Numbered from the stretch's first letter, positions 7,330 to 62,433 are shown. The stretch is DNA of 64,000 nucleotides from an uncultured Lentisphaerota bacterium (GCA_903889245.1 CAISWQ010000038.1:68763-132762); one strand, 5' to 3'. Program-made: numbers and translations. The notes: a model not told the origin generated them from the letters alone.

Positions 7330-7473
7330 TTTTCCAGGGATTGGAAAACACAACGCCGGTTTTTCCAGGGATGGGAAGATTTCGCGCCCAGCTTTTCCAA
7401 GCCTTGGAAACTCTCGCTGAATTTTTCCCGAGGCCTGGAAAAAGCCGCCGTGAATTTTCCGGGCCTTGGAAAA
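7330..7473. repeat. array of 5 palindromic units (TTTTCCARGNNTGGAAAA-like) at 30-32 bp period
   Basis: The units start at about 7330, 7362, 7393, 7423 and 7455. Copies 3 and 5 are near-perfect; copies 2 and 4 are degenerate. Confidence 0.9.
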
Positions 7474-7507
7474 CCCAGTTGCACACCTCTTGAGGTGTGC
7501 AACTGGG
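7474..7507. promoter_or_regulatory. perfect inverted repeat CCCAGTTGCACACCTC-TT-GAGGTGTGCAACTGGG (15-16 bp stem)
   Basis: The two arms are exact reverse complements. The structure lies between the palindrome array and the kinase start. No T-tract follows. Confidence 0.6.
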
Positions 7508-7558
7508 CGGCGGCAGATGGCGGTTGCGCTTTGGGGCGGCAGCGGCTAGCGTGCGCGC

Positions 7559-10500
7559 GTGATGAAATCGTGGCGTCAAGTGAGGCTGGGGGCCGGCCTC
7601 GCGCTGCTGCTGGCCGGCGGCGTGGCCGGGGCCGCGCCGCAGGACCGGCTTGCCGATCGTTACTCGTGGCGGCTCTGGGGCCGCGAGCAGGATTTCCCCG
7701 ATACGCGGATCCGCGCGCTGGATTTCGATGAGCAGGGACGGCTGTGGTTGGCCACGCCACAGGGCATGGCGCGGTTCGATGGCGTGCGTTTCAATGTCGT
7801 CACCAACCTGCCGCCGGGCATTGCGCCGGTGCGCGGCTGGCTGCCGGACGCGGGCGGGACGCCGTGGGTCTTTGGCGTCGGCGGCGTAGCGCACCTGACG
7901 CGGACGGGCTGGCAGAAGGTGGGCGCCCAAGCGGTGGGGCCGGTGCATGTGCAGGCGGTATTCACGAATGCCACCGGTGGACTGTGGTTGGTTGGCGAGA
8001 AGACGCTGTGGTTTTATCAACACGGCAAACTGACGCGGGTGGAGTGGCCGCCCGGCATGGGTGAGGACGCCCGGATCACGAGCGCCGCCCTGGATGCCGG
8101 GCAGGTCGTCTGGCTGGTGGTGGAGGGCCGGCTGCTGGCGTTTCATGAAGACCACTGGCTGTCCGAGGAGGAGGCGCGCATAGGTCACTGGGAACATGTC
8201 GCGCTGGTGCGTGCGGAGGATCATGGCACGCTGGTGGTGGTGGAACGCGAGGGCCTGCATGTCCGGCGCGGGGGACGCTGGCGAAACCTACCGCTGCCGC
8301 CGCCGGCGGTGGCCGGCGATGCGGCTTTGCTGCGGCCGACGGCGGTGCTGGAGGAAGCCAACGGCAACAACATCTGGTTGGGAACGGCCCACGCGCTCTA
8401 TCGCTGGTCGCGTGGCACGTGGTTGAACCTGACGGATAACGACATCGGTGTGCCGCTGGCCGTGAATGTGCTCGAGCTGGATCGTTACGGCGATGTCTGG
8501 GCGGGGCTGGACAGCGGGTTGCTGTGTTTGCATCGCCGGGCGGTGACGATGCTGCGGACGGGTGAGGCCGCGCAGGACGAACCGATCACGTGTCTGTTTG
8601 CGCTGGCCGCGGGGCAGGTCTGGGCCGGCATCAAGGAGCGTGGCTTGTGGGTGGTCCGGCGCAACGGGTTGGAGCCGCTGGAACTGCCGCTGAAAAGCAA
8701 CCAGACCGTCACGGCGGTGGCGCCGGGCGAGGGTGGCTGGTGGGTGGGTACGCATGGCGATGGCCTGTTCTGGATGACGACCACGCAACTGGTGCCCGTC
8801 GCGTCCACCACCGCTCCCGGATCGCAGACGATCACCGCTTTGCAACGAACACGCGACGGGCGGCTCTGGGTGGGGACGTGGGCAGGATTGTATTGGTTGC
8901 CAGCAGCGGCGCCGGGCACCGGGCAACAGCCGGAGTTGCGGGGTGTCCCCGGTGGCCAGAAGTGGAATGTAACCGCGCTGGCCGTCGAGGGGACGGGCAC
9001 CTTGTGGGTGGCCACGGCGGGGCAGGGACCTTCGCGCCTGGAGCCAGATGGCACCCTGCATTATTTCGGCGAGCGCGATGGCGTCCCCCCCACGGCGCTA
9101 CTTTGCCTGCAGGCCGATCGCGATGGCCGGTTGTGGGCCGGTTGCGCCCGCGGGCTGATCCGGTGGGATGGCCAGCGCTGGCAGGCCTGTGATCTGCGCA
9201 AGGATTTCATCGTGCGCCATCTCTATCATGATGATAGAGGCCGGCTGTGGTGCGGCACGGCACAGGGGCTGCACTGTCTGCGGCCCGACGCGGTCAGGGA
9301 TGCCCTCGCGCAGCGCTCGGTTTCCGGTCGTTATTTTCGCATGGGCGCGGCGGATGGTCTGCCCGCCGCCGAGTGTGTCGCGCAGGTCAGCCAGGCGGTC
9401 ACGAGCGCCGGCAACGAACTCTTCCTGGCCACCCCCGATGGGGTGGCGCGGCTTTCGCTCAACATCGCGCAGACCGGCCGCCGGCCGCAGGCAATGGACA
9501 TCGAGACCGTGAGCGCCGTCGGCCGGCTGCTCTGGAACCGGCTCGGGTGCGTGCCGGGCGAGCCGCTGCCCGGCACGCCGCTCCTCAAGCTGCCGCCGGG
9601 CAGCGAGCCGGTCACCTTTGAGTACGCGATGCCGGAACTGTTCTGGCCGGACCGCATCCGCTATGACTACCAGTGGAAACTGGAGGGCTTGAACGAGGCC
9701 TGGTCGCCCGCCACCACGGAGCCGCGGGTGACCTTCGAGCAACTGCCCCCGGGCGACTACAGCTTCCGGGTGCGCGGCCGGCGCGAGGGCGACTGGTGCG
9801 AGGTGGCGCAGCCGGTGCGTTTGCGCGTGCTGCCGTTCTTCTGGCAGGCCTTGTGGTTCCGCGCGGTCGTCGCCGCGCTGGCGCTGGTCACGACGGTGCT
9901 GGTGGCGTGGCGGTTGCTGCGCGCCCGGTATCGCCGGCGCTTGCTGCGCGCCCAGCAGGCGCAGGCGTTGGCGCAGGAGCGCACGCGCATCGCGCAGGAT
10001 CTGCACGACGAGATGGGCGCGGGCCTCACAGAAATCAGCCTGCTGGGCGATCTGGCCACGACGGAAGCGCACGGCCCCACGCGCACCGAGAACATTTCGT
10101 TGCTGACCCAGCGCGCCCGCGCGCTGGTGACCAAGCTCGACGAGATCGTCTGGGCCGTCAACCCGCGCCACGACCGGCTCGAAGCGGTGAGTGATTTTTT
10201 TGGCAGCTATGCGCAGCAGTTCCTGCGGCCCGCCGGCATCGCGTGCGCGCTGGAGGTGGCCGAGGCCCTGCCGGAACTGCCGCTGGAGGCGCGGGTACGG
10301 CATCAACTCTTCCTGGCCTTCAAGGAGGCGCTGACCAACTTGGTCCGCCATTCCGGCGCGACGCAGGCGCGGTTGCGGATCGCGGTCGAGGCCGGCGGGC
10401 TGACGATCAGCGTGAGCGACAACGGGCGCGGCCTGAAGGCGGAGGGCGCGGCCGGCCTGCATGATGGGTTGCGCAGCATGTGCGCGCGCCTGGAAAAACT

Positions 10501-10588
10501 GGGTGGCGCCTGTGAGGTCGCGTCGCCGGCCGGCGGCGGCGTGACGGTGCTGCTGCGGTTGCCCTTGAAAACGGAGAAGCCAACATGA
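7559..10588 (+). CDS. sensor histidine kinase with periplasmic two-component-regulator propeller repeats and a Y_Y_Y domain, a TM helix, and HisKA_3 plus HATPase_c domains
   Basis: The N-terminus has repeated propeller segments (LATPQGMARFDG, LWVGTWAGLYW) typical of HTCS-like sensors. A TM helix follows (FRAVVAALALVTTVLVAW). The H-box is ERTRIAQDLHDEMGAGL and the ATPase region includes VSDNGRGL. Confidence 0.85.
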   Translation: MMKSWRQVRLGAGLALLLAGGVAGAAPQDRLADRYSWRLWGREQDFPDTRIRALDFDEQGRLWLATPQGMARFDGVRFNVVTNLPPGIAPVRGWLPDAGGTPWVFGVGGVAHLTRTGWQKVGAQAVGPVHVQAVFTNATGGLWLVGEKTLWFYQHGKLTRVEWPPGMGEDARITSAALDAGQVVWLVVEGRLLAFHEDHWLSEEEARIGHWEHVALVRAEDHGTLVVVEREGLHVRRGGRWRNLPLPPPAVAGDAALLRPTAVLEEANGNNIWLGTAHALYRWSRGTWLNLTDNDIGVPLAVNVLELDRYGDVWAGLDSGLLCLHRRAVTMLRTGEAAQDEPITCLFALAAGQVWAGIKERGLWVVRRNGLEPLELPLKSNQTVTAVAPGEGGWWVGTHGDGLFWMTTTQLVPVASTTAPGSQTITALQRTRDGRLWVGTWAGLYWLPAAAPGTGQQPELRGVPGGQKWNVTALAVEGTGTLWVATAGQGPSRLEPDGTLHYFGERDGVPPTALLCLQADRDGRLWAGCARGLIRWDGQRWQACDLRKDFIVRHLYHDDRGRLWCGTAQGLHCLRPDAVRDALAQRSVSGRYFRMGAADGLPAAECVAQVSQAVTSAGNELFLATPDGVARLSLNIAQTGRRPQAMDIETVSAVGRLLWNRLGCVPGEPLPGTPLLKLPPGSEPVTFEYAMPELFWPDRIRYDYQWKLEGLNEAWSPATTEPRVTFEQLPPGDYSFRVRGRREGDWCEVAQPVRLRVLPFFWQALWFRAVVAALALVTTVLVAWRLLRARYRRRLLRAQQAQALAQERTRIAQDLHDEMGAGLTEISLLGDLATTEAHGPTRTENISLLTQRARALVTKLDEIVWAVNPRHDRLEAVSDFFGSYAQQFLRPAGIACALEVAEALPELPLEARVRHQLFLAFKEALTNLVRHSGATQARLRIAVEAGGLTISVSDNGRGLKAEGAAGLHDGLRSMCARLEKLGGACEVASPAGGGVTVLLRLPLKTEKPT

Positions 10589-11223
10589 TCAAGGTGGCCC
10601 TGGTGGATGATCAGGAAAATGTACGGCGTACCTTGTGTCGCGTCCTGGCGGCCGATGGCGGGATGAAATGTGTCGCCGCCTGCGCCACTGGCGAGGAGGC
10701 CGTGCGGCAGCTCCCCGCCGCCGCGCCCGATGTGGTGCTGATGGATTTGGAGATGCCGGGCATGAAAGGCCACGAGGCCACAGCCCGGCTGCTGGAAAAA
10801 ATGCCCGACCTTGATGTGCTCGTGCTGACCGTGCACGACGACACGGAGCGGATTTTCCAGGCCTTGCGCGCCGGGGCCTGCGGCTACCTGCTCAAGCGCA
10901 CGCCGGCCGCCGGCATCCTCGCCGCCATCCGCGAGGCGCACCGCGGCGGCGCGCCGATGACCGGCGCGATTGCGCGCAAGATTTTGACCGCGTTCCACAA
11001 ACCTGCCCCCGCCGCCGCCAGCGCGCCGGCCGATGAGCACCTCTCGCAGCGCGAGCAGAGCATCCTCCACCTCCTCGCGCAGGGGCAGAGCAACAAGGAG
11101 ATCGCCGAGCACCTCAAGCTCGCGGTCGAGACCGTTTGCTGGAACCTCAAGCGCATCTACCGCAAGCTCCACGTCCAGAGCCGCACCCAGGCGATGCTCA
11201 AATACCGCCCGCCCGCCACCTGA
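10585..11223 (+). CDS. NarL/FixJ-family response regulator (REC domain plus LuxR-type HTH)
   Basis: REC residues VALVDDQ...VLMDLEMPGMKG. The C-terminal HTH is LSQREQSILHLLAQGQSNKEIAEHLKLAVETV. There is an ATGA overlap with the kinase gene. Confidence 0.9.
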   Translation: MIKVALVDDQENVRRTLCRVLAADGGMKCVAACATGEEAVRQLPAAAPDVVLMDLEMPGMKGHEATARLLEKMPDLDVLVLTVHDDTERIFQALRAGACGYLLKRTPAAGILAAIREAHRGGAPMTGAIARKILTAFHKPAPAAASAPADEHLSQREQSILHLLAQGQSNKEIAEHLKLAVETVCWNLKRIYRKLHVQSRTQAMLKYRPPAT

Positions 11224-11346: not shown

Positions 11347-11397
11347 TTTTTCCAAGGGTTGGAAAAATTTCCGGCGTTTTTTCCAAGGCTTGGAAAA
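11347..11397. repeat. palindrome doublet (2 units, 31 bp apart)
   Basis: TTTTTCCAAGGGTTGGAAAAA and TTTTTTCCAAGGCTTGGAAAA, about 45 bp upstream of the PEP-CTERM gene start. Confidence 0.9.
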
Positions 11398-14497: not shown

Positions 14498-14678
14498 CAA
14501 GCCCCGCACCCAACGGGCGCATACAAGTTTTTTCGCATCAGGGGGAATCCCCGCGCAATAGGAACCGGCCCGCTCCGTTATGAATGGATGGCATTGGCCC
14601 TGCGCTGGTGACCACAGGCGAGCAGATGAACTTCACCCGTTCGTTGTCGCCGTTGGTGCCGGGAAGCTGGCTGCTGGG

Positions 14679-14730
14679 TTTTCCAATGCTTGGAAAAAGC
14701 GCTGATGCCACTTTCCAATCCTTGGAAAAA
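14679..14730. repeat. palindrome doublet (2 units, 32 bp apart)
   Basis: TTTTCCAATGCTTGGAAAAA and CTTTCCAATCCTTGGAAAAA, 50-100 bp upstream of the GH78 start. The 57-bp unit including its spacer is about 85% identical to the unit inside sulfatase 17624-17676. Confidence 0.9.
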
Positions 14731-14779
14731 CTCGCCGGCGCGGTATGACCACGACCCCGTTACGTCCGGGAAAGGGACT

Positions 14780-17586: not shown

Positions 17587-19026
17587 ATGAAAACATTGCC
17601 TGCCATTCTTACGGTGTTTTGCGTTTTTCCAATGCTTGGAAAAAGTGCCGACTCCACTTTCCAACCCTTGGAAAAACCGCCGCGCCCGAACATCGTCTAT
17701 ATCCTCGCCGATGATCTTGGCTTCGCCGACGTGGGTTTCCACGGGCCGGAGATCAAGACGCCGCACATCGACAAGCTCGCCGCCGCCGGCACGAAGCTGG
17801 AAGCGTTCTACGTCCTGCCGGTCTGCACGCCGACGCGCTCGGCGCTGATGACCGGCCGCTACCCGATCCGCTACGGCCGCCAGTACAACGTCATCCGCCC
17901 CGGCTCGCAGGTCGGGCTCGCGCTCGAAGAGCGCCTGCTGCCGCAGGCCCTGCGCGAGGCCGGCTACGCGACGGCGCTGTGCGGCAAGTGGCACCTTGGC
18001 GATTTCAAGGCGGAATATCTGCCGATGGCGCGCGGCTTCGAGCACCAGTTCGGCTTCTGCTCGCACGGCGAAAAATTCACGCACTTCCCGAAAGGCGACT
18101 GCGGCTTGATGCGCGACCAGAAGCCGATCACCGAAGAAGGCTACCTCGCGCACATGACCGCCAACGAGGCGATCCGCCAGATCGAACAGCGTGATGTGAA
18201 CAAGCCGCTCTTCCTCTACGTCGCGTTCAACGCGGTACACAATCCGCTGGAGTGTCCGCCAGAATATGCCAAACCCTATGCAGCGCTCGGCCCGACGCGC
18301 AGCCTCTACGCTGGCATGACCGCCGCGATGGATGAGGACATCGGGAAAATCCTCGAGGCTATCGGGCGCGCCGGCATGGCCAGCAACACGCTCATCATCT
18401 TCCACAGCGACAACGGCGGGCTGACCACCAAGGGCAAGATCGCCAGCAACGCGCCGCTGCGCGGCGGCAAGGGCTCGCTCTATGAGGGCGGCGTCCGTGC
18501 CTGCGCCTGCGCCACGTGGCCCGTCCATATCCCGGCCGGCGCGGCGCTCAAGGAGCCGCTGCACGTCGTGGACTGGTATCCCACGCTGCTCAAGCTCGCG
18601 GGCGCCGCGCTCGAGCAGAAGCAACCGCTCGATGGACGCGATATCTGGCCGGTGCTCACCCAGAACAAACCTTCGCCGCACGATGTGCTCCTGCTCAACA
18701 CCGTCGGCCGCACCGGCGCCGTGCGCATGGGCGACTGGAAGCTCGTCCGCAATGGCAAGTGGGACGACGACGAGGACAGCAGCGGCGCGAAGCCGACGCG
18801 CGAGGAGAAGCAGAAGCAGCGGCTGGCGCGGCGCGACGCGCCCGACACCTTCGAGCTGTTCAACCTCGCGCAGGACCTCGGCGAAAAAAATAATCTGGCC
18901 CAGCAGCAACCCGACAAGGTGAAGGAACTCACCGCGCGGCTGGACGCCTTCGCCAAGGAGGCGGTCCCGCCGGACCTGGGGCCGCGGCCCGCCGGCGCGA
19001 AGAAGGGCAAGACTTCCGAAAAATGA
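17587..19026 (+). CDS. sulfatase (arylsulfatase-like, formylglycine-dependent)
   Basis: IVYILADDLGFADVGFHG, the CTPTRSALMTGRYP C-x-P-x-R motif, and GKWHLG. Confidence 0.9.
   Translation: MKTLPAILTVFCVFPMLGKSADSTFQPLEKPPRPNIVYILADDLGFADVGFHGPEIKTPHIDKLAAAGTKLEAFYVLPVCTPTRSALMTGRYPIRYGRQYNVIRPGSQVGLALEERLLPQALREAGYATALCGKWHLGDFKAEYLPMARGFEHQFGFCSHGEKFTHFPKGDCGLMRDQKPITEEGYLAHMTANEAIRQIEQRDVNKPLFLYVAFNAVHNPLECPPEYAKPYAALGPTRSLYAGMTAAMDEDIGKILEAIGRAGMASNTLIIFHSDNGGLTTKGKIASNAPLRGGKGSLYEGGVRACACATWPVHIPAGAALKEPLHVVDWYPTLLKLAGAALEQKQPLDGRDIWPVLTQNKPSPHDVLLLNTVGRTGAVRMGDWKLVRNGKWDDDEDSSGAKPTREEKQKQRLARRDAPDTFELFNLAQDLGEKNNLAQQQPDKVKELTARLDAFAKEAVPPDLGPRPAGAKKGKTSEK
17624..17676. repeat. palindrome doublet embedded in the sulfatase 5' coding region (translated FPMLGKS....FQPLEK)
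   Basis: TTTTTCCAATGCTTGGAAAAA and CTTTCCAACCCTTGGAAAAA, 32 bp apart, lying between the signal peptide and the mature sulfatase domain. Confidence 0.9.
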
Positions 19027-19036
19027 AAGGCACACC

Positions 19037-20512
19037 ATGAATTCCCGTCGTGATTTTCTGAAACTCGCCGGCCTCGGCGCGGTCGGCGCCGCGCTTTTTC
19101 CAAGGGTTGGAAAAAGTGCGGCCCCGGTTTTCCAGGGCTTGGAAAAAGGCAAGCGCCCGAGCGTGTTGTTCCTCATCGTGGACGACATGACGACGACGCT
19201 CGGCTGCTACGGCGACCGTGACGCGCGTACGCCGCACATGGATGCGCTCGCCGCGCGCGGCGTCCGCTTCGACCGCGCCTACACGCAATTCTCGCTCTGC
19301 AATCCCTCGCGCTGCTCGTTCCTCACCGGCTGCTACCCGGAGCGCACGAAGGTGTTCGATCTCGTCACGAGTTTGCGCGTGGCGCTGCCGGACGAGGTGA
19401 CGCTGCCGCAGCACTTCAAGAACGCCGGCTACACCGCCGGCCGCATCGGCAAGGTCTTCCACGTGCCCGATCCGAAGACCAAGCCCGATGTCACGCTGGG
19501 GGTGGCACTGCACAAGGATCAGGCGATCCTCGACGAGGCCAAGCTCGCCGAGCGCAGCGAGGGCGACCTTTCCGATCCGCCGCACAAGTCGGGGCGGGAA
19601 GGCAATCAATACAACCGTTGCTATGCGCCGTCACCGCATCCCGACAAGGATTTCACCGACTACCAGATCGCCGAGGAGGCGCTCGCGACGCTGGAGCAGT
19701 TCAAGGACAAGCCGTTCTTCCTCGCGGTCGGTTTCATCCGTCCGCACACGCCCTACGTGGCGCCGCGCCGGTTCTTCGACGCCATTGATCCAACGAAGAT
19801 CGCCATGCCCGCCTTCTATCAGTCCGGCGGCGAGGATCGCGCGAAAATTCCGAACCCCGCGCTGCGGCCGAACAACAATGTCTTCAGGTTCGCCGCGCCG
19901 TCGCCCAAGGAAGCGCGCGAGGCGCGTCGCGCCTATCACGCTTCGACCGCGTGGGTGGATTCCCAGGTCGGCCGCGTGCTCGCCAAGCTCAAGGAGCTGA
20001 AACTCGACGAGAACACCTACGTGCTGCTCACCGGCGACCACGGCTACCAGCTTGGCGAGCACGGCCTGTGGGCGAAGCAGACGCTGTTCGAGGAGGGCAC
20101 GCACGTGCCGCTGCTCGTCGCCGGGCCCGGCATCAAGCCCGGCACCTGTACGGGCCTCGTCGAGCAGGTGGATATTTTCCCGACGCTCGCCGCGCTCGCG
20201 GGGCTAGACATCCCGAAGAGCGTGCAAGGCATGTCGTTGAAGGAGCAGATCGCTGACCCAACCAAGGCGGGCAAGCCGGCGGTCTTCAGCACGATGGTCT
20301 CGACGCACACCAAGCTGATGGGACGCAGCGTGCGCGACGAACGCTTCCGTTACATCGAGTGGGATGAGGGCCGCGCCGGCCGCCAGCTCTATGACCACGA
20401 GGGCGATCCTCACGAGTTGACCAACCTGGCCGATCTGCCGCAACATGCCGCGCGTGTCGGGCAGATGCACGCCCTGCTGGCGCAGCACCTTGAAAAAGTA
20501 AGGAGCAAGTGA
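19037..20512 (+). CDS. sulfatase (iduronate-2-sulfatase-like), Tat-secreted
   Basis: Tat motif SRRDFLKLAGLGA. VLFLIVDD and CNPSRCSFLTGCYP (C-x-P-x-R). Confidence 0.9.
   Translation: MNSRRDFLKLAGLGAVGAALFPRVGKSAAPVFQGLEKGKRPSVLFLIVDDMTTTLGCYGDRDARTPHMDALAARGVRFDRAYTQFSLCNPSRCSFLTGCYPERTKVFDLVTSLRVALPDEVTLPQHFKNAGYTAGRIGKVFHVPDPKTKPDVTLGVALHKDQAILDEAKLAERSEGDLSDPPHKSGREGNQYNRCYAPSPHPDKDFTDYQIAEEALATLEQFKDKPFFLAVGFIRPHTPYVAPRRFFDAIDPTKIAMPAFYQSGGEDRAKIPNPALRPNNNVFRFAAPSPKEAREARRAYHASTAWVDSQVGRVLAKLKELKLDENTYVLLTGDHGYQLGEHGLWAKQTLFEEGTHVPLLVAGPGIKPGTCTGLVEQVDIFPTLAALAGLDIPKSVQGMSLKEQIADPTKAGKPAVFSTMVSTHTKLMGRSVRDERFRYIEWDEGRAGRQLYDHEGDPHELTNLADLPQHAARVGQMHALLAQHLEKVRSK
19095..19147. repeat. palindrome doublet embedded in coding (translated FPRVGKS....FQGLEK)
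   Basis: TTTTTCCAAGGGTTGGAAAAA and GTTTTCCAGGGCTTGGAAAAA, 32 bp apart, immediately after the Tat signal. Confidence 0.9.
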
Positions 20513-20514: not shown

Positions 20515-22188
20515 ATGAAGAAGATCATCCTGTCGGTGTTCGTATTCAGTCTCGCCTGCGGCGCCGCGCCGCTGAAGGTCGTCAACGGCGACTTCAGCGA
20601 TCTCGCCGGGCTGACGCAGAAGAGCGATGGCTGGTATGCCGGCCTGCCGAAGGGCTGGACCGGTTCCGAGGGCAGCTATGCCCTCCACACCAAGCGCGGC
20701 GCGACCGCGCCGACGTGCAATCCCTCCACGCTGGGCTTCTTCCGCCAGCAGGTCGGCGTGCTCGAGGCGGCGTCGGACGTCACGCTGACGTTCGATGTTT
20801 CCGATCCTTGGAAACCGGACGTGCTGCTCAACGCCGCGATTCTCGACGGGGACTTGATGGAATTGGCCACCGGCGATTTCAAGGTCGGCACAAAGCAGCA
20901 GCTTGTGGCGCGCGGCGTCCCCGCCGGCACGACGATCATCATCGGTTATCAAGCCGCGAAGTCCACGCCGGGGCTCGACAACGTTTCCGTCGCGGTGCAG
21001 CCGGCGACGGCCGCGCCCGCCGGCGTGGCGGCGAAGGCGAACGCGAAGATCACCGTCGCGAGCTACTACTTCGGCAACTACCATCTGGGCGATCCGCGCA
21101 ACGTGAAAATGAAAGGCAGGGATTGGTGCGAGTGGGAGCTGGTCAAGGCCGCCAAGCCGCGCTTCCCCGGCCACCACCAGCCGAACGTGCCGCTCTGGGG
21201 CTACACCGATGAGTCGGACCCGAAGGCGATGGAGCAGAAGATCGCCGCCGCCGCCGACCACGGCATCGAGGCGTTTATCTTCGACTGGTATTACTACGAT
21301 GACGGCCCGTTCCTCGACCGGCCAATCGATATCGGTTTCCTCAAGGCCGCGAACAACAGCCGCCTCAAGTTCTCCTTCATGTGGGCAAATCACGACTGGA
21401 TCGAGCTGCATCCCTACACGAAGGGCGCACCGCGCAAGGTGCTGTTCCCCGGCAAGGTTTCGCCGGAGAGCTTCGAGAAAATCTGCGCGCACGTCATCAA
21501 CGACTACTTCAAGCATCCGTCCTACTGGAAGATCGAGGGCCAGCCCTACTTCTCGTTCTATGACCTGACCCGGCTGCTGGAGAATTTCGGCTCGGTGGAG
21601 GCGGCGCGCGCCGCGCTGGATAAATTCCGCGCGGCGGTCAAGGCCGCCGGCTTCCCCGGCTTGCACCTCAACGCCGTGGCGTGGGGCCAGCCGATTTTGC
21701 CCAACGAGAAAGTGCCGGTGGATTCCGCCAAGCTCGTGCGCGACCTCGGCTTCGATTCCGTCACCTCCTACGTCTGGATTCATCACGTGCCGCTGCCGCA
21801 GCAGGCGACCGACTACAACCTCGTCCGCGACGGATACTTCAAATATTGGAACAGTGCGGTGAAAAAATTCGGCCTGCCATTCTTCCCGAACGTGACGATG
21901 GGGTGGGATCCCAGCCCGCGCTGCGATCAGCGCGACAAGTTCGACGCGTCCGGCTACCCGTTTACCAACACCATCGGCGGCAACACGCCGGAGCGGTTCA
22001 AGGAAGCGCTCGCGATGACCAAGCGTCGCCTGCTCGCGCAACCGGAGTCCGCCGGCCCGCGCATCCTGAATATCAACTGCTGGAACGAATGGACCGAGGG
22101 TAGTTACCTTGAGCCCGACCAGCGCAACGGAATGAAATATCTTGAGGCCGTCCGCGACGTCTTCGGCGTCCACGCGGCGGCCCCGTGA
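20515..22188 (+). CDS. WbsX/GH99-like family protein (putative glycoside hydrolase), secreted
   Basis: Signal peptide MKKIILSVFVFSLACGAA. Conserved blocks FIFDWYYYDD, FMWANHDW and NINCWNEWTEGSYLEPD are shared with the next gene. The family assignment is from memory and not verified. Confidence 0.55.
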   Translation: MKKIILSVFVFSLACGAAPLKVVNGDFSDLAGLTQKSDGWYAGLPKGWTGSEGSYALHTKRGATAPTCNPSTLGFFRQQVGVLEAASDVTLTFDVSDPWKPDVLLNAAILDGDLMELATGDFKVGTKQQLVARGVPAGTTIIIGYQAAKSTPGLDNVSVAVQPATAAPAGVAAKANAKITVASYYFGNYHLGDPRNVKMKGRDWCEWELVKAAKPRFPGHHQPNVPLWGYTDESDPKAMEQKIAAAADHGIEAFIFDWYYYDDGPFLDRPIDIGFLKAANNSRLKFSFMWANHDWIELHPYTKGAPRKVLFPGKVSPESFEKICAHVINDYFKHPSYWKIEGQPYFSFYDLTRLLENFGSVEAARAALDKFRAAVKAAGFPGLHLNAVAWGQPILPNEKVPVDSAKLVRDLGFDSVTSYVWIHHVPLPQQATDYNLVRDGYFKYWNSAVKKFGLPFFPNVTMGWDPSPRCDQRDKFDASGYPFTNTIGGNTPERFKEALAMTKRRLLAQPESAGPRILNINCWNEWTEGSYLEPDQRNGMKYLEAVRDVFGVHAAAP

Positions 22189-23429: not shown

Positions 23430-23442
23430 AACCGGACCGACC

Positions 23443-30045: not shown

Positions 30046-31443
30046 TCAATGTTTGGCGCCCTAAACGCCGCGGATTTCCAAGCCTTGGAAAAATCCGCGG
30101 AAAAAGTTCCAAGCCTTGGAAAAAATGAGCCGGAAATTTCCAAGGCCTGGAAAAACGGCGGAAATAATTTCCAATCCTTGGAAAACGTCGCCGGTGTGCA
30201 GGCCGTGCTTGCGCACATCCAGCAGGGTTTTCCGCAATCCATCAAGGTGGACACGAAGGGCGACGCCGATGTCGTCGGCCTGCCGCAGCCCTATACGGCG
30301 CCGTGCATCAAGGAGGGTTTCCAGCAGCAGTTTTACTGGGATACCTATTTCATCAACCAAGGGCTGCTGCGCATCGGCATGGCGGAGCAGGCGCGGCACA
30401 ACGTCAACAATCTACTGCTGCTGACCGACCAGTTCGGCATCGTGCCCTCGGCCAACCGGCGCTCGATGGCGAACCGGTCGCAGACGCCGTTTCTCTCGCA
30501 GATGGTGCGCGACTCCTACGAGCACCAGCCCGACGCCGCATGGTTGAAGGGCGCCGTTGCGGTGCTGAAGAAGGATTACCAGTTCTGGATGACGAAACGG
30601 CTCGCGCCGTGCGGGCTGAACCGCAGCGGCAACGACGCGACGGAGCAGTACCTGATGGCCTTTTATTATTACCTCGCGAAGGAGCGCTTCAAGGGGCTCG
30701 CGCTGGCGACGAAGGCGGAGCAACTCGCGTTCAGCAGCCAGGCGTTGAGCGAGGCGGAGACGTGGGACTTCACGCCGCGCTACGACCGCCGCGCCGAGGA
30801 ATTCTGTCCGCTCGACCTCAACAGCAATCTCTATATCTACGAGATGAACTTCGCGTGGTTCAGCAAGATTCTCGGCGCTGGCGAGGAAACGGCGTGGCTG
30901 GCGAAAGCGGAACAGCGCAAGGCGTTGATGCAGGAGTTGCTCTGGAACGAGAAGCTCGGCTGCTATGGCGACTATGACTGGAAGAACAGGAAGCAGGGCG
31001 ACCTCGTCAGTTGCGCCACGCTCTATCCGCTGGTCGCCGGTTTCGCCACGCCGCAGCAGGCGGAGCGGGTCGTCGCGAAGATGCGCGCGGTGCTCGAATG
31101 CGAGCACGGACTCGCGACGTGCGAGCAGCGCAAACATCCGTTCTCCTATCAGTGGGACTTCCCCAACGCGTGGCCGCCGCTACAACTGCTCGCGATCCAG
31201 GGGCTGGACCGCTACGGCTTCAAGGCCGATGCCCAGCGCATCGCCCGCAAGTACGTGGACACCGTCGTGCGGAATTTTGTGAAGACCGGCGACTTGTGGG
31301 AGAAGTACAACGCGGTCACGGGAACGATTGAGGTGAAGGACGAATACCAGATGCCGCGCATGATGGGCTGGACCGCCGGCGTGTTTGTCTGCGCGGCCGA
31401 CTATCTGCACCTGCGAAACAAAACCGGAGAACACAAACCATGA
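30046..31443 (+). CDS. trehalase-like glycoside hydrolase (GH37); start codon uncertain
   Basis: QQQFYWDTYFINQGLL matches trehalase signature 1. QWDFPNAWPPLQ matches signature 2 (QWD-x-PN-x-W-x-P). DLNSNLYIYE is also present. The first in-frame ATG at 30046 would place the palindrome array in coding; the alternative start is GTG near 30196. The N-terminal region is short compared with typical trehalases. Confidence 0.6.
   Translation, partial: SMFGALNAADFQALEKSAEKVPSLGKNEPEISKAWKNGGNNFQSLENVAGVQAVLAHIQQGFPQSIKVDTKGDADVVGLPQPYTAPCIKEGFQQQFYWDTYFINQGLLRIGMAEQARHNVNNLLLLTDQFGIVPSANRRSMANRSQTPFLSQMVRDSYEHQPDAAWLKGAVAVLKKDYQFWMTKRLAPCGLNRSGNDATEQYLMAFYYYLAKERFKGLALATKAEQLAFSSQALSEAETWDFTPRYDRRAEEFCPLDLNSNLYIYEMNFAWFSKILGAGEETAWLAKAEQRKALMQELLWNEKLGCYGDYDWKNRKQGDLVSCATLYPLVAGFATPQQAERVVAKMRAVLECEHGLATCEQRKHPFSYQWDFPNAWPPLQLLAIQGLDRYGFKADAQRIARKYVDTVVRNFVKTGDLWEKYNAVTGTIEVKDEYQMPRMMGWTAGVFVCAADYLHLRNKTGEHKP
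30074..30186. repeat. array of 4 palindromic units at 31 bp period
   Basis: ATTTCCAAGCCTTGGAAAAA, AGTTCCAAGCCTTGGAAAAAA, AATTTCCAAGGCCTGGAAAAA and AATTTCCAATCCTTGGAAAAC. Consecutive copies are read in different frames. Confidence 0.9.
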
Positions 31444-35576: not shown

Positions 35577-35629
35577 CTTTTCCAAGCCCTGGGAAAGGCG
35601 GCCTTGTCTTTTTCCAAGGTTTGGAAGCT
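35577..35629. repeat. palindrome doublet (degenerate, 32 bp apart)
   Basis: CTTTTCCAAGCCCTGGGAAAG and TTTTTCCAAGGTTTGGAAGCT, 25-80 bp upstream of the TolB-like start. Confidence 0.8.
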
Positions 35630-35655
35630 TGGTGGCTGCGCTATGCTCGCGGCAC

Positions 35656-43248: not shown

Positions 43249-43317
43249 CGCTGCGGCTGGCGGCGCAACGAAGTCCTCACGCTCCGCGTGAGGTCCTGTC
43301 GCGGCATAGCCGCGTCA

Positions 43318-43454
43318 GTTTTCCAAGGCTTGGAAAATTTTCCGCGCGTTTTTCCAAGGCTTGGAAAAGTGGCGCCGGGTTGTTGCTGGCGGCGGGCCTG
43401 CTTTTTCCAATGCCTGGAAAAACGGCTGCCGCGACTTTCCAATCCTTGGAAAAC
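43318..43454. repeat. 4 palindromic units arranged as two doublets
   Basis: Units at about 43318, 43349, 43402 and 43435. The first two are noncoding; the last two are read as FPMPGKT....FQSLEN at the sulfatase N-terminus. Confidence 0.9.
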
Positions 43455-50517: not shown

Positions 50518-50568
50518 TTTTTCCAAGGGTTGGAAAACGAAACACGAATTTTTCCAAGCCTTGGAAAC
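50518..50568. repeat. palindrome doublet (31 bp apart)
   Basis: TTTTTCCAAGGGTTGGAAAAC and TTTTTCCAAGCCTTGGAAAC, beginning 6 bp after the GH78 stop and 25-75 bp upstream of the URO-D-family start. Confidence 0.9.
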
Positions 50569-51743: not shown

Positions 51744-53387
51744 ATGATGGCAACCTCGCGACGCGACTTCCTGAAATTGGCCGGCCTCGGCGCGCTGGCT
51801 TTTCCAAGCCTTGGAAAAACTGCCCCCGCCGGTTTCCAACCCTTGGAAAAGTCGCGCCCCAACTTTCTCATCATCCTCGCCGACGACATGGGGTTCTCGG
51901 ACGCGGGCTGCTACGGCAGTGACATCCGCACGCCGCACCTCGACCAACTCGCCGCGCGCGGGTTGCGGTTCACGCAGTTCTATAACACCGGCCGCTGCTG
52001 GCCGACGCGCAGCGCGCTGATCACCGGCTACTACCCGCAGCAGATTCACATGGACCCGCCGCGCGGCCGGCTGCCGCCGTGGACGCGTACGCTGGCACAT
52101 CGCCTCAAGCCGCTCGGCTACCGCAGCTATCACTCCGGCAAGTGGCACGTGAACGGCGCGCCGCGCCCCGTGGCCGAGGGCGGGTTCGAACACTCCTACG
52201 ACCTGGAAGACCACGACCGGAATTTCAATCCGCAGAAAATTTTGCAGGACGACCAGCCGCTGCCGCCGGTGGCGAAGGGCAGCGGTTATTACACGACCAC
52301 GGCGTTCTGTGACCACGCGATCAAATGCCTGAAGGAGCACGCGGAAAAATATTCTGCGCAGCCGTTCTTCTCTTATCTCGCGTTCACGGTGCCGCATTTC
52401 CCGTTGCAGGCGCCGCCGGAAGACATCGCGCGCTACCGTGACCGTTACCTCATGGGCTGGGACAAGGTGCGCGAGGAGCGCTGGCAGAAATTGCGGGAGC
52501 TGAAGATCGTCGCTTGCGGCCTCGCGCCGCTGGAGCCGGGTTTTGCGCCGCGCTACTTCAAGCCGGATGTGCTCGCCAAGCTGGGACCCGGCGAGTCGAA
52601 GCACGCGGTGCCATGGGTGCAGCTGACGGACGAGCAGAAGCAGTATCAGGCGACGAAGATGGCGATCCACGCCGCGATGATCGACCGCATGGATGCCGAG
52701 ATCGGCCGCGTGCTTGCGCAGGTGCGCGCGATGGGCGCCTGGGAGAACACGGTCATCTTCTTCCTTTCCGATAACGGCACCGATGCGACGCTGCTCGTGC
52801 GCGGCGATGGCCACGACCGCGCGGCGGCGCCCGGCTCGGCGGGCTCGTTCCTCTGCCTCGGCCCCGGCTGGTCGAGCGCGGGCAATGCGCCGTTCCGCCG
52901 CCACAAGGTTTGGACGCACGAGGGCGGCATCTCGACGCCGCTGATCGTACACTGGCCCAAGGGCATTGCCGCGCAGGGCGAGCTGCGGCGCGACGTGGGG
53001 CACGTCACTGATTTCGTACCGACGCTGCTCGAGCTTGCTGGCGATACGGCCGCGCCGGCGGCGGGCGCGCCACCGCTGCCGGGCCGGAGTCTCGTCCCGG
53101 CGTTTGGCAGGGACGGCAGCGTGACGCGCGACGAGGTCTTCTTCCATCACGAGGGCAATCGCGCGCTCCGGCAGGGCAACTTCAAGCTTGTCTCGGCGTG
53201 CGAAGACCACAATGAATGGGAACTATTCGATCTGGCGGGCGACCGGTGCGAGCAGCGCAATCTCGCCGCTGCGCAGCCGGAGCGGGTCCGCGCCATGGCC
53301 GCGCGCTGGCAGCAGCTGCAGGAGCAGTTCACGCGCGACGCCGGTCCGGATCTGCCGTTTGCGAAGAAGACCAGAAACGATGATTGA
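51744..53387 (+). CDS. sulfatase (arylsulfatase-like), Tat-secreted
   Basis: Tat motif SRRDFLKLAGLGALA. FLIILADDMGFSDAGCYG and CWPTRSALITGYYP (C-x-P-x-R). Confidence 0.9.
   Translation: MMATSRRDFLKLAGLGALAFPSLGKTAPAGFQPLEKSRPNFLIILADDMGFSDAGCYGSDIRTPHLDQLAARGLRFTQFYNTGRCWPTRSALITGYYPQQIHMDPPRGRLPPWTRTLAHRLKPLGYRSYHSGKWHVNGAPRPVAEGGFEHSYDLEDHDRNFNPQKILQDDQPLPPVAKGSGYYTTTAFCDHAIKCLKEHAEKYSAQPFFSYLAFTVPHFPLQAPPEDIARYRDRYLMGWDKVREERWQKLRELKIVACGLAPLEPGFAPRYFKPDVLAKLGPGESKHAVPWVQLTDEQKQYQATKMAIHAAMIDRMDAEIGRVLAQVRAMGAWENTVIFFLSDNGTDATLLVRGDGHDRAAAPGSAGSFLCLGPGWSSAGNAPFRRHKVWTHEGGISTPLIVHWPKGIAAQGELRRDVGHVTDFVPTLLELAGDTAAPAAGAPPLPGRSLVPAFGRDGSVTRDEVFFHHEGNRALRQGNFKLVSACEDHNEWELFDLAGDRCEQRNLAAAQPERVRAMAARWQQLQEQFTRDAGPDLPFAKKTRNDD
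51800..51850. repeat. palindrome doublet embedded in coding (translated FPSLGKT....FQPLEK)
   Basis: CTTTTCCAAGCCTTGGAAAAA and GGTTTCCAACCCTTGGAAAAG, 32 bp apart, directly after the Tat signal. Confidence 0.9.
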
Positions 53388-56794: not shown

Positions 56795-56949
56795 ATCCAA
56801 CTATCCAACGCCTTTCAGCCGCCGTTCCCCGGGGCAGAGTTCTGTCTTCGCCGGCGCAACTGGCCGGCTGCGACACCGACGGGCTCGGCTACAAAAGCTT
56901 TCGGCCCGACGAGGTGGTGATTCCGGCGGACGCGGAAAAGTTAATTGCA

Positions 56950-57131
56950 GCTGTGGGCGCGGCGCGCATGGCTACATCCCCACGGCGAAGGCCTTCGCCG
57001 GCGGCAGCTACGAAACGTGGTTCGGCGAGCACTCCTACCTCATCACGCGCGCCGGCGAGATCACCGAGAGGGAAGCGTTGGACATCCTGGAGCGTTTGAA
57101 AGGCGCGGCGCAAAACAAAACCCGACGATGA
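56950..57131 (+). pseudogene. 3' fragment of a neutral-ceramidase-like gene (C-terminal ~55 codons only)
   Basis: The fragment encodes GAHGYIPTAKAFAGGSYETWFGEHSYLITRAGEITEREALDILERLK. It is about 85-90% identical at nucleotide level to 59390-59530, the C-terminus of the gene at 58195-59547. No upstream part of the gene is present. Confidence 0.6.
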
Positions 57132-58198: not shown

Positions 58199-59547
58199 CA
58201 ACCCGGCAACGTTTCCAAGGATGGGAAATTGAAAGCAGTGGTTTTTCCACGCCTTGGAAACTGCTGCCGCTCGCGCTGCTGGCGGTGTGGCCGGCGCTGG
58301 CCAGTGACACGATCAAGGCGGGCGTGGGCATGGTGGACATCACACCGGCCGAGCCGGTCGTGCTGGCGGGTTCGCCGACCAGGCTGAAGTCCACGGCGGT
58401 CGGCACGCATCTCTATGCGAAAGCGCTGGTGCTGGCCGGCAATGGGTAGCGGGTGGCGATCGTCACCTTGGACACGTTGAAATATCCCGTGGACTGCGTC
58501 GTGCGGGCGCGCCAGGCCGTCGAGCAGGCCACCGGCATCGCAGCGAGCAACGTCATCATCTGTGCCTCGCACACGCACCGCGGTCCGCTGTGGCCCTCTT
58601 ACAAGGATCAACTCGTGACGCCCATCGCCGACGCGGTGGCGCAGGCGGCGCGCGACCTCGCGCCGTGTACGCTCGGTGTGGCGCAGGGCAGGGTCGAGGG
58701 CGTGAGCAAATGCCGCCGCGTGATCAAGGAAGGGCACGCTTGGAACCGCTGGCAGTTGCCGGCGGCGGAGCAGGAAAAATATCCGGCGGAGAGCGCGCTC
58801 GATCCCGCAGTGGGGGTACTGGCGGTGACCGGCCAGGACGGAAAGTATAAGGCAGTCGTGTTCAACTTTGCGTGTCACGCCGCCAACACGCGCGCCCTCG
58901 CGGTCTCGGCGGATTTTCCGGGCGATGCGCAGCAGGTGGTGCAAAAGAAATTGGGCTATGCCGTGCCCACGCTGTTTCTCACCGGCGCCTGTGGCGATGT
59001 GAATCCCATCTACAGCGCGAAACGCGAATTGTTCGGCGAGAAGCTCGGTGGCGAAATCATGCGCTGCCTGGGCCGGCTTGAACCGATCCAGAAGCCGACG
59101 CTGGCGCTGGAATGCCGCGAGTTGCACATGCCGGGCCGCGAGCAGCCGGAATTCAAGGAGGCGGAGGTGATCCGCAACTGGCCCGGCCAGCTTGAGCACT
59201 ACAGAAAATCGTTCAGCGACATGAAGCAGCGGGCCAAGCCGGCCTATCCATTTTTCATCACCAGCCTGCGTCTGGGCGAGGACTTCACCATCGTGACCAA
59301 TCCCGACGAGCTGTTCTGCGAAATCGGTTTGAGCATCAAGCAGCAGTCGCCCTTCAAGCACACGCTGGTCGTCGAGCAGGTCAACGGCGCGCACGGCTAC
59401 ATCCCCACGGCGAAGGCGTTCGCCGGCGGCAGCTACGAGACGTGGTTCGGCGAGCACTCCTATCTCACCACGCGCGCCGGCGACATCATCGAAAAGGAAT
59501 CGCTGGACATCCTGAATCGCTTGAAGCACGCTGAACACAAGCCCTAG
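58195..59547 (+). pseudogene. neutral/alkaline ceramidase-like gene interrupted by an in-frame TAG at 58447-58449 (pseudogene, sequencing error or stop-codon readthrough)
   Basis: The two track ORFs 57748..58449 and 58453..59547 are in the same frame. Read together they align across the TAG with the intact paralog at 60948: ...AKALVLAGNG*RVAIVTLD versus ...AQAVIIASGGKRLAIVGVD. The downstream segment ICASHTHRGP matches the ceramidase catalytic region. Confidence 0.55.
58211..58261. repeat. palindrome doublet (degenerate, 32 bp apart) at the 5' end of the ceramidase-like gene
   Basis: GTTTCCAAGGATGGGAAAT and GTTTTTCCACGCCTTGGAAAC. If the ATG at 58195 is the start, they are read as RFQGWEI....FSTPWK before the hydrophobic signal segment. 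Confidence 0.75.
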
Positions 59548-60941: not shown

Positions 60942-60947
60942 GCACAC

Positions 60948-62297
60948 ATGAAACACGTCCTCACCATCCTCGCCGCCTGGCTGCTTTGGCCGCTGGCGGC
61001 GGCTTCATCCGAAAGCAGTCTTGAGGTCGGCTTTGGTCAAGTGGATATCACGCCGCCGGTCGGGGGCATCATCACGGGGCCGGCCTCGCCGGTGAGCACG
61101 GGCACGGATGATCCGCTCAAGGCGCAGGCGGTGATCATCGCGAGCGGCGGGAAAAGGCTGGCCATCGTGGGCGTGGACCTGGTGAAGATCCGCCACGATC
61201 TGGCCGAGGCCGCCATCACGCAGGCCGCGCAGCGGGCGGGGCTCGCGCGCGAAGCGGTGCTGATCTGCCCGAGCCACAACCATAGCTCGCCGCTGATCCC
61301 GGCGCACGGCGACAAGAACACCATCAACCGCGACTATATCGCCACGCTGCCGAAGGCGATTGCCGACAGCATCGAGCAGGCGAACAAAAACCTGCAGCCC
61401 GCGCGCCTCTCCATCGGCCGCTCGCTGGTCTACGAGGGCCACATCAACCGCCGCGTGCTTTCCAAGGCGGACGGGCTCGCGCTGAACGTGTGGCTGAAAA
61501 AAGTGAACGACCTCAAGCAGGTGCCGCAGGTGCTGGGGACGGAAGGCCCGATCGATCCCGAGCTGTGGGTGGTCCGGTTCGATGCGCCCGATGGAAAAAT
61601 GCTCGGGGCGCTGGTGAACTTCACCTGTCATCCGTGCCTGCATGACCGCATCCAAACGCACAACTGGTCGGCGGACTACCCCGGCGTCATCGCGGCGCAG
61701 CTCGCGCAGGCGTTCGGGCCGCAGGCGAAGTGCATCTTCATGCAGGGCAGCGCCGGCAACATCCAGCCGGCGGTCACGTTCACGCCCGACTGGCTGGAGC
61801 GCGCGTCGGTGTTCGCGCGCGCCGCGGTCGAGGCCGCCAGTAACGCCGTCGCCGTCGCGGGGCCCATCGCCGTTGACTATGCGCGGCGCGACGTGGCGGT
61901 GCCGCGCTGCAATCCCGCGGCCCAGCGCGAGGGCGCCATCGAGCGCCTCGGCTGGCGGCCGGAAGCCTTCGAGGGCACCAAGCGCACTGCCGCCGCGCTG
62001 CCCGCCATGCTGACGGTCCCCGTGAGCGCCGCGCGCCTCGGCCCGTTCGCGCTCGCGACCAATCCCGGCGAGCTCTTCGTCGAGTGGGGACTGGACATCA
62101 AGAAACGCTCGCCGTTCCCGCACACCATCGTGAGCGAACTGACCAACGAGTCGATCGGCTACGAGCCCACCGCACTGGCCTTCCAGCACGAAGGCTATGA
62201 AACGCTCTCCGGCGTCAACTACGTCGCGCTCGCAGGCATCCAGCAACTGGTGGATACAGCGGTGGAGCTGTTGCAGCAGTTATGGGCGCAGAAATGA
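60948..62297 (+). CDS. neutral/alkaline ceramidase-like hydrolase (intact paralog)
   Basis: Signal peptide MKHVLTILAAWLLWPLAAA. GFGQVDITPP, LICPSHNHSSP and a C-terminal ESIGYEPTALAFQHEGYET. Collinear with the gene at 58195-59547. Confidence 0.75.
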   Translation: MKHVLTILAAWLLWPLAAASSESSLEVGFGQVDITPPVGGIITGPASPVSTGTDDPLKAQAVIIASGGKRLAIVGVDLVKIRHDLAEAAITQAAQRAGLAREAVLICPSHNHSSPLIPAHGDKNTINRDYIATLPKAIADSIEQANKNLQPARLSIGRSLVYEGHINRRVLSKADGLALNVWLKKVNDLKQVPQVLGTEGPIDPELWVVRFDAPDGKMLGALVNFTCHPCLHDRIQTHNWSADYPGVIAAQLAQAFGPQAKCIFMQGSAGNIQPAVTFTPDWLERASVFARAAVEAASNAVAVAGPIAVDYARRDVAVPRCNPAAQREGAIERLGWRPEAFEGTKRTAAALPAMLTVPVSAARLGPFALATNPGELFVEWGLDIKKRSPFPHTIVSELTNESIGYEPTALAFQHEGYETLSGVNYVALAGIQQLVDTAVELLQQLWAQK

Positions 62298-62315
62298 CCC
62301 AGAACTGGCAGAAAC

Positions 62316-62433
62316 TTTTCCAAGGATTGGTCCCGACCTCGCAGCGCGTCGGGATTCCAAGCCTTGGGAAATCCCCGGCGCTTTTTTCCAAGCCTTGGAA
62401 AAAACGGCCGAAAATTTTCCAAGCCTTGGAAAG
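62316..62433. repeat. array of 4 palindromic units lying between convergent gene ends
   Basis: Units at about 62316 (degenerate), 62352, 62383 and 62414. The last two are near-perfect (TTTTTTCCAAGCCTTGGAAAAAA and ATTTTCCAAGCCTTGGAAAG). Confidence 0.9.

Follow-up and report, generated by a model that had tools for sequence, protein, structure and literature searches.

Phased palindrome doublets as a lineage-wide, highly iterated repeat family in the Kiritimatiellia

Does a short palindrome that recurs beside sulfatase and rhamnosidase genes mark a local polysaccharide-degradation regulon, or does it belong to a genome-wide system? The question is raised by a 64,000-nucleotide stretch of DNA from an uncultured Lentisphaerota bacterium (GCA_903889245.1, CAISWQ010000038.1:68763-132762), hereafter called the window, in which a 19-bp palindrome with the conserved core TTCCAA-NSN-TTGGAA recurs in doublets and larger arrays. 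An earlier note, made from the sequence alone, had taken these copies for the operators of neighboring sulfatase, rhamnosidase and two-component genes, or else for a mobile palindromic module. Our analysis indicates that the palindromes are not operators of a local polysaccharide-degradation locus but form a lineage-wide, helically phased and highly iterated family in the Kiritimatiellia, within the Planctomycetes-Verrucomicrobia-Chlamydiae (PVC) group. We hold with moderate confidence that the doublets are cooperative, same-face duplex sites for a symmetric oligomer, a nucleoid-associated protein or global regulator acting genome-wide and co-evolving with its sites.

Copies, spacing and spread of the palindrome

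Within the window, 32 matches to TTCCAAGNCTTGGAA were found at up to two mismatches, where 0.09 are expected and none of 100 shuffles reached 32. Once the degenerate in-register copies at 7363, 7426 and 62318 are counted, the total comes to about 35 (~0.6 copies per kb), close to the ~34 of the earlier note. Every cluster listed there was recovered in place, with an additional weak single copy at 20799, and nearly all copies fall into 12 doublets or arrays (Table 1). The strict pairing that had been described also held, neighboring copies being 31 bp apart in nine cases and 32 bp apart in eight. The core is preceded by a T run and followed by an A run in the window, its central base is G or C in ~96% of copies, and the word is open, that is, free of stop codons, in all six frames. 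The gaps between sites along the window, counted by hand, have a coefficient of variation of ~0.56 in a small sample (n = 12).

To place these copies in a wider frame, one genome per bacterial or archaeal species was scanned with the pattern TTCCAANNNTTGGAA-N16/17-TTCCAANNNTTGGAA. At least 109 loci from at least 44 genomes were obtained, all of them in metagenome-assembled genomes of Kiritimatiellia, Verrucomicrobiota or Lentisphaerae recovered from lakes, sediments, rumen and marine sites, where the chance matches to this 24-base doublet pattern in 596 Gb are estimated at ~0.004. The window, part of a 112-kb metagenome contig in ENA, is not among these loci (L001-L109), which were selected for carrying a doublet, and the Logan contigs that match the window are identical to it. 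In the fetched loci, 87% of the copies sit in arrays (singles, 65 of 483), and the distances between neighbors are again 31 bp (116 cases) or 32 bp (106 cases), with minor classes mainly at 21-22 (12), 30 (6) and 62-63 bp (3). Sites consist of 2-6 palindrome units, with repeats of 15-19 bp and spacers of 12-17 bp. Viral contigs seldom carry the motif, with 7 stretches found among 2.9 million.

Doublets or arrays occur about once per 5-10 kb in independently chosen stretches (12 in 64 kb in the window, 3 in 14 kb in L115, 2 in 21 kb in L125 and, in a variant of its own, 2 in 21 kb in L126), which would amount to roughly a thousand sites in each genome if the density of the window holds genome-wide. 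The motif was absent over ~20 kb each in L116, Pontiella desulfatans (L127) and L128. Because the word is replaced in L126, as described below, genomes scored as motif-negative may hold variants that are invisible to the scan pattern.

No Rfam family matched the motif, and in the literature searched neither the motif word nor such repeats in Kiritimatiellia are described, in line with the earlier note, which had not recognized it as any known operator. The palindrome-pair family has apparently been undescribed until now. It belongs with the highly iterated palindromic genome repeats, among which it is unusual for its strict helical phasing, its class-wide conservation with variants and its substitution into coding sequences.

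On the shared core, each genome uses a dialect of its own. The centre triplet is genome-specific (TSA in 89 of the 94 copies of CAIVKH, GSC in the window, ACA or ACC elsewhere), and so is the spacing, which is 32 bp only in CAIVKH, 31 bp only in RZZM, JBFXGK, CAZBEO and JAQVYB, and both in the window. In the spacers, A/T tracts are conserved at the edges, whereas the central parts have diverged to the point of being unrelated, also inside one array; this pattern suggests copies that are old and constrained, not recent.

Positions can also be kept between genomes, as three cross-genome pairs of homologues have arrays at the same gene end. At the ahcY-pyrE junction of L047, L010 and L125, a doublet ends 2-38 nt ahead of the pyrE start codon. 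At this pyrE-upstream position, L126 has the same 32-bp spacing and a near-identical spacer (gtttgttctggccgtt vs gtttgttctcgccgga) but a different word, TTTTACAGACGTTGRAA. Doublets of TTTTACAGACGTTGRAA, which is partly palindromic and has its four copies in one orientation, are found in L126 at 9943-9990 and 20339-20386, 10 kb apart. A position that is kept while its word is replaced is the expected product of co-evolution between the sites and a binding protein.

Gene neighborhoods of the arrays

Genes in the window were assigned with a map of G+C at third codon positions (GC3), Pfam and a custom codon-model gene caller, which is approximate at start codons. Pfam confirmed the gene content described earlier: sulfatases, three GH78 rhamnosidases, a GH127 gene, trehalase-like, PD40/TolB-like, URO-D-family and ceramidase-like genes, two LuxR/GerE-type two-component systems and a PATR protein that terminates in a PEP-CTERM signal. 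Nearly all of these genes lie on the + strand, and since the window is almost wholly co-directional, a position at the 5′ end of one gene is inseparable from the 3′ end of the previous gene using the window alone.

The placement of the copies at gene 5′ ends, as first proposed, did not hold up. Five doublets (17627, 19098, 43405, 51802 and 58213) are coding, and the array at 62316-62433 lies between convergent gene ends. The first four, all with 32-bp spacing, are in sulfatase genes, where they read FPxLGK(S/T)xxxxFQxLE(K/N) and stand after the hydrophobic region of the signal peptide and before the mature enzyme, two of them together with the twin-arginine translocation (Tat) motif RRDFLK. 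The doublet at 58213 is in the n-region of a signal peptide and is read in the other two frames. The doublet at 35580 may be a sixth coding one, and the weak single match at 20799 could have arisen by chance or represent a decayed palindrome.

Across the fetched loci, the genes downstream of arrays have N-termini like those of purM, valS, era, pyrE, folP and ribD, among others, and arrays are also present in the murF-mraY gap and upstream of pyrE. The 93 genes that flank arrays of at least three copies carry 113 Pfam families, those listed being mostly housekeeping (AlaRS, PheRS, CysRS, DnaA, EF-Ts, MurJ), and sulfatases account for 2 of the 93.

The type of gap was then compared with that of all gene pairs, using custom gene calls. 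Arrays lie in co-directional, divergent and convergent gaps in 83, 23 and 17 cases (n = 123), against 403, 72 and 65 for all pairs (n = 540), so that convergent gaps are occupied at the baseline rate. Convergent arrays were confirmed by Pfam at five loci (9 of 10 flanking genes) and in the window's own case, and two further ones come from the independent gene calls of L115. Many arrays begin 4-30 nt past a stop codon, and several convergent gaps contain little beyond the doublet. Co-directional gaps have a median length of 160-174 nt with arrays and of 22-34 nt without. The arrays show a strong preference for gene boundaries, with all intergenic gap classes occupied.

Orthologous loci were also examined, a comparison with related genomes that the earlier note had proposed. 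In L115, which is independently annotated and carries an orthologue of the URO-D-family gene (86% identity), two of the three doublets are in convergent gaps, the third is between a kinase gene and fusA, and none is upstream of the URO-D gene. Orthologues of the sulfatases in L110 and L111 (~78% nucleotide identity) sit in 16-22 kb of motif-free DNA. Their nucleotide alignment to the window starts within a few bases past the doublet end at 17676, and their signal peptides are of the ordinary kind, 7 and 13 residues shorter than in the window.

A locus-specific operator was therefore rejected, on the strength of the species-wide scan, the comparison of gap types and the Pfam families of flanking genes. 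The sulfatase, rhamnosidase and two-component genes named as targets in the window give way, over at least 44 genomes, to housekeeping neighbors.

Duplex DNA recognition and the competing explanations

According to the explanation that we favor, each 15-19-bp unit, (T-run)TTCCAA-NSN-TTGGAA(A-run), would bind a symmetric dimer on duplex DNA. Units 31-32 bp apart, or less often ~21-22, 43, 52-53 or 62-63 bp apart, would bring the dimers onto one face of the helix, where they would bind cooperatively as a tetramer or larger oligomer. Sites occupy all kinds of intergenic gaps and tolerant coding segments (signal peptides, surface helices), the coding ones arising by substitution and being translated as FPxxGK, FSxxWK or FQxLEK. 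They would follow a protein that changes over time, giving rise to the genome dialects and, at one conserved position, to a swap of the word with the spacing kept. The role is the weakest step: the protein might be nucleoid-associated, a global regulator or a marker of transcription-unit boundaries, and would not serve gene-specific induction.

A comparable known layout is that of NrdR, which has two ~16-bp palindromic boxes with centres 31-32 bp apart (about three turns) as a cooperative same-face operator (PMC2892513). Phased palindromic boxes ~31-32 bp apart are shared with the dimer-of-dimers operators of the NrdR, Lrp and AsnC type. Compared with NrdR, the Kiritimatiellia motif has another sequence, is not tied to nrd or any gene class and is not restricted to promoters, and it would number about a thousand sites per genome, if the window density is general, where NrdR has a handful. 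What stands of the earlier claim of a cooperative dimer operator is the mode of binding, as the palindrome suits a helix-turn-helix (HTH) dimer with three-turn phasing; a coherent regulon does not stand, given the 113 Pfam families.

Several properties of the copies bear on whether DNA or RNA is recognized. Within genomes, permutation gave no excess of complementarity between the flank positions of the two arms (z at or below 0), and core changes are one-sided in 133 cases and compensated in 6. With respect to the sense strand of co-directional neighbors, the central base is G or C without bias (124 vs 144), exactly as expected if a G:C pair sits on the dyad of duplex DNA. The flanking A/T runs are oriented differently in different genomes (TTTT-core-AAAA in the window, AAAAS-core-STTTT in JBFXGK), and an extended stem is therefore not conserved. 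Most short distances are near multiples of 10.5 bp. Terminator-like matches were at chance level, the stem in the window being followed by an A run and no U tract. Taken together, the arm, centre, flank and spacing data speak more for a symmetric protein that recognizes duplex DNA than for a selected hairpin.

The origin of coding copies can be followed in one genome that has two doublets inside mnmE and one inside aroB. When MnmE and AroB were aligned to their PDB homologues across the doublets, gaps did not exceed 1-2 residues and no 17-residue insertion was seen; AroB is shorter there than its homologues, and the doublet-encoded SNVWK aligns with PDSWK of Thermotoga MnmE. The lack of an insertion indicates that the word was written by substitution into existing coding sequence at tolerant positions, unlike transposition. 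Rickettsia palindromic elements (RPEs) resemble these copies in being palindromic repeats translated within protein-coding genes. However, RPEs are insertions of 100-150 bp that add residues, whereas the mnmE and aroB doublets add no segment and the signal peptides of the window sulfatases are only 7-13 residues longer than those of their orthologues. The idea of a mobile palindromic module was only partly right, as in-gene copies come without insertion and at least one position is conserved across genomes.

A number of points weigh against binding by a co-evolving chromosomal protein. No DNA-binding family is recurrent among the genes flanking the largest arrays, and the census of neighbors gave no candidate for the binding protein. 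The density estimate comes from four independently chosen stretches only (the window, L115, L125 and L126), the conservation of position from one junction and two weaker cases, and the helical quantization beyond 31-32 bp from ~20 distances, with 9, 18, 37 and 46 bp as misfits. Invariant core positions offer no covariation test, and an RNA- or single-stranded-DNA-binding protein that reads sequence would likewise leave no covariation. All site positions are compatible with transcribed regions, making an RNA-level role possible, and it is difficult to see why a classical regulator would need sites within mnmE or aroB.

A more far-reaching form of the protein-binding explanation, which we offer tentatively and as somewhat doubtful, is that the palindromes constitute a "genome punctuation" of the Kiritimatiellia. 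An oligomeric protein would occupy about a thousand phased pairs per genome, selection would write its sites even into signal peptides and conserved enzymes, and protein and sites would co-evolve into variants, up to replacement of the word over a whole genome as in L126.

The best-surviving alternative, though an unlikely one, is a selfish repeat of the repetitive extragenic palindrome (REP) kind, organized as in bacterial interspersed mosaic elements (BIMEs) or REP doublets forming hairpins (REPINs), which would be copied by a REP-associated tyrosine transposase (RAYT)-like enzyme or by gene conversion and would be mostly a passenger in tolerant DNA. The REP/BIME/REPIN families of enterobacteria and pseudomonads consist of hundreds of short, mostly extragenic palindromic units, single or arrayed, which are located after stop codons and between convergent genes, and those of E. 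coli are bound by IHF and gyrase. The high copy number, the predominance of arrays, the occupation of every intergenic class including convergent gaps right after stops, and the greater length of array-bearing co-directional gaps all agree with this, as does the presence or absence of copies at orthologous loci. The centre, "variable" between genomes and uniform within one (89 of 94 TSA), resembles concerted evolution, and the five 32-bp modules of the window (family D4) are 71-78% identical over 68 nt. Against a REP origin, the copies are not strictly extragenic (sulfatase, mnmE and aroB coding sequences) and those in genes come without insertion or target-site duplications. The core is AT-rich and has no GTAG or GC-rich imperfect hairpin, while a separate, classical GTAG hairpin repeat coexists in the same genomes. 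Spacers have a constant length and a variable sequence, unconserved at their centres even inside a single array, and by inspection doublet members are not mutually complementary as in a REPIN. REPs are usually species- or genus-specific, but here one core is kept class-wide, over at least 44 genomes, and the pyrE position is kept while the dialect changes. Y1_Tnp was absent among the 25 listed of the 113 flanking Pfam families, although no search aimed at a RAYT was made.

We consider distinctly unlikely an element acting at the RNA level, in which transcribed hairpins, UUUUCCAA-NSN-UUGGAAAA, would be exonuclease shields, intercistronic processing sites or translational operators. Each unit does fold (z of -4 to -5 vs shuffles), and the positions suit transcripts, being intercistronic in murF-mraY, at convergent 3′ ends and often 2-16 nt before a start codon. 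Stabilization of upstream mRNA is also a property of E. coli REPs. The data on duplex recognition given above run the other way, as compensatory changes are absent in core and flanks, G and C are equally frequent as the loop base on the sense strand, and the extended stem is not conserved. Spacings of 31-32 and 21-22 bp fit turns of B-DNA and have no rationale in single-stranded RNA, and the units have neither a terminator-type T tail nor an Rfam match.

An uptake or "self" signature, comparable to the uptake signal sequences (USS) and DNA uptake sequences (DUS), appears improbable. Such words would be enriched by molecular drive, through biased uptake with recombination or through repair, and not for a local function. 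The density of ~0.6 copies per kb in the window, the absence of a preference for strand or gene end, the origin by substitution at tolerant positions of conserved genes, the genome dialects on a shared core and the rarity in viral contigs would all be accounted for. USS/DUS families have dialects, and DUS often form inverted pairs after genes. The HIP1 word of cyanobacteria and the USS/DUS are likewise hyper-abundant short words, found clade-wide with lineage variants in coding and non-coding DNA, substitution-born and without strand bias. These known signatures are single, unphased words of 8-12 bases, the uptake sequences being non-palindromic 9-12-mers, whereas the Kiritimatiellia unit is a 15-19-bp palindrome in strictly phased pairs or arrays with a strong preference for gene boundaries, and singles are a minority (65 of 483). 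Competence is unreported in this class.

Local regulon operators are very improbable and largely refuted. They would be bound, for instance, by the LuxR/GerE-type response regulators encoded at 10585-11223 and at 62477-63253, with sulfatase, GH78 and related genes under their control. In their favor, a palindrome of 19 bp is suitable for a GerE-type HTH dimer, operators with tandem boxes at 31-32 bp are known, and two of the four largest window arrays adjoin the two response-regulator operons. Against them, the motif stands beside tRNA synthetase, dnaA, tsf, murJ, pyrE and mraY genes across at least 44 genomes, in convergent gaps at baseline rate and inside coding sequences, and orthologous sulfatase and URO-D loci lack it or have it elsewhere.

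Other candidates were rejected as well. A miniature inverted-repeat transposable element (MITE) is contradicted by the absence of target-site duplications and of insertions in coding sequences, and a protein sorting motif (FPxLGK/FQxLEK) by the use of all three frames, the many non-coding copies and the orthologues without it. The 16-17 nt between a right arm and the next left arm recall a sigma-70 promoter, but TTCCAA lacks key -10 bases and no promoter-like matches were found in the arrays. A likeness of the GGAAC(T)TTT spacer edges to the -35 element of extracytoplasmic function (ECF) sigma factors was confined to some genomes and was dropped. CRISPR mini-arrays would need longer repeats and spacers (at least ~23 and ~21 bp), long arrays and cas genes, and do not agree with the short repeats and spacers, the 2-6 units at many sites and the lack of cas domains in the Pfam scan of the window. 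Finally, the logos, on re-inspection, did not support an AT/GC periodicity of 10.5 bp inside the unit.

Window features, neighboring repeats and wider meaning

The positions of all palindrome sites in the window are collected in Table 1.

Table 1 Palindrome copies, doublets and arrays in the window, with their gene context (CDS, coding sequence).
Position	Strand	Feature	Context and reading
1873..1891		Single perfect copy	Inside BNR-repeat protein CDS (1417-3189), read SSKAWK
7330..7473		5-copy array (7332, 7363, 7395, 7426, 7457), 31/32-bp period	Begins 3 nt past 2-hydroxyacid dehydrogenase stop; upstream of Reg_prop/Y_Y_Y histidine kinase gene
11347..11397		Doublet, 31 bp, non-coding	Gap between GerE-type response regulator gene and PATR/PEP-CTERM gene (ATG 11439)
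14679..14730		Doublet, 32 bp	Upstream of first GH78 gene (ATG ~14780); readable as short open frame ...FPMLGKSADATFQSLEKLAGAV*
17624..17676	+	Doublet, 32 bp	In sulfatase CDS 17587-19026, read FPMLGKSADSTFQPLEK; absent from L110 and L111 orthologues
19095..19147	+	Doublet, 32 bp	In Tat-signal sulfatase CDS 19037-20512, read FPRVGKSAAPVFQGLEK; absent from L111 orthologue
20797..20815		Single degenerate copy, 2 mismatches	Inside WbsX-like gene
30074..30186		4-copy array, 31-bp period	Upstream of trehalase-like gene
35577..35629		Degenerate doublet, 32 bp	5′ end of PD40/TolB-like gene, edge of low-GC island
43318..43454		Two doublets, 53 bp apart (43321/43352 at 31 bp; 43405/43437 at 32 bp)	43405/43437 in sulfatase N-terminus, read FPMPGKTAAATFQSLEN
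50518..50568		Doublet, 31 bp	~6 nt past second GH78 stop (ends 50512), 26 nt before URO-D-family ATG
51800..51850	+	Doublet, 32 bp	In Tat-signal sulfatase CDS 51744-53387, read FPSLGKTAPAGFQPLEK
58211..58261	+	Doublet, 32 bp	Signal-peptide n-region of ceramidase-like gene, read FQGWEI...FSTPWK
62316..62433		4-copy array (first degenerate; spacings 37, 31, 31)	Fills convergent gap between ceramidase-like gene (+, end 62297) and GerE response regulator gene (-, end 62477)

A second repeat family, of the classical REP type, is present in the same DNA. It consists of GTAG followed by a GC-rich hairpin, GTAGGCCGCGTGACCTCACGCGGC, with copies in the window at 29996-30019 and 43222-43245, in L020 at 1418 and in L097 at 449 (- strand). 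In the window, each copy is part of ~35 nt of near-identical sequence and is followed ~60-80 nt downstream by a palindrome array, at 30076 and 43321 respectively; in the L097 copy a C/G swap in the stem is compensated (GCCGGGTGA...TCACCCGGC).

Two other inverted repeats adjoin arrays. Between the 5-copy array, which it directly adjoins, and the gene for the histidine kinase, the window has at 7474-7507 a perfect hairpin with a 15-bp stem (CCCAGTTGCACACCTCTTGAGGTGTGCAACTGGG; DNA fold of -19 kcal/mol, z = -6.9) and without a T tail. In L010, a long perfect palindrome (5165-5208; GGGGTCAGAGTACCAGCTTGCTAGTAAGCTGGTACTCTGACCCC) adjoins a 3-copy array in a divergent gap upstream of pyrE.

Over 68 nt (14678-14745), the doublet that precedes the first GH78 gene shares 78% identity with the N-terminal module of the sulfatase at 17624. 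Where the two spacers differ, it is mostly in third codon positions, and a stop closes the frame after "LAGAV". A sulfatase N-terminus may survive here as a relic, or the region may be a small upstream open reading frame (ORF).

A low-GC island at ~34000-40000 (0.51-0.56 vs ~0.65) contains the PD40/TolB-like gene and a gene for a 1078-aa PGAP1-like alpha/beta hydrolase, and is possibly acquired DNA. Its sole motif is the degenerate doublet at its edge, and a 7.7-kb motif-free stretch comes next.

The ceramidase-like gene at 58195 is interrupted by an in-frame TAG (58450-58452), which separates a part of 84 aa that includes the signal peptide (58195-58449) from one of 364 aa (58453-59547), the two being separate genes in the public annotation; it could be a pseudogene, a sequencing error or a case of read-through. 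A 156-nt direct repeat with 87% identity (56960-57115 and 59385-59540) joins the start of an unannotated gene (56945-58198) to the 3′ end of this ceramidase-like gene. Elsewhere in the window, one ORF of 1005 aa (23275-26292) encodes two complete sulfatase domains in tandem and has no motif doublet.

The motif has practical consequences for annotation. The public call of a sulfatase at ~43113-44858 (581 aa) takes in both doublets at 43.3 kb, and its start at ~43113 probably over-extends the N-terminus, because the motif is stop-free in every frame; gene callers are misled in this way. The motif could also be mistaken for the signal of a polysaccharide-utilization regulon, as it was in the earlier note. 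For experimental work in the PVC group, an abundant chromosomal protein could be identified with the doublet as a simple DNA bait.

If the protein-binding explanation is true, the palindromes are a natural case of dual coding, in which a signal at the DNA level is imposed on protein sequence, and the shared FPxLGK(S/T)…FQxLE(K/N) of four window sulfatases would be owed solely to the DNA word. A DNA-binding protein and all of its sites across the genome would then co-evolve, a process that would be seen here as variants across a class that has been little studied experimentally.

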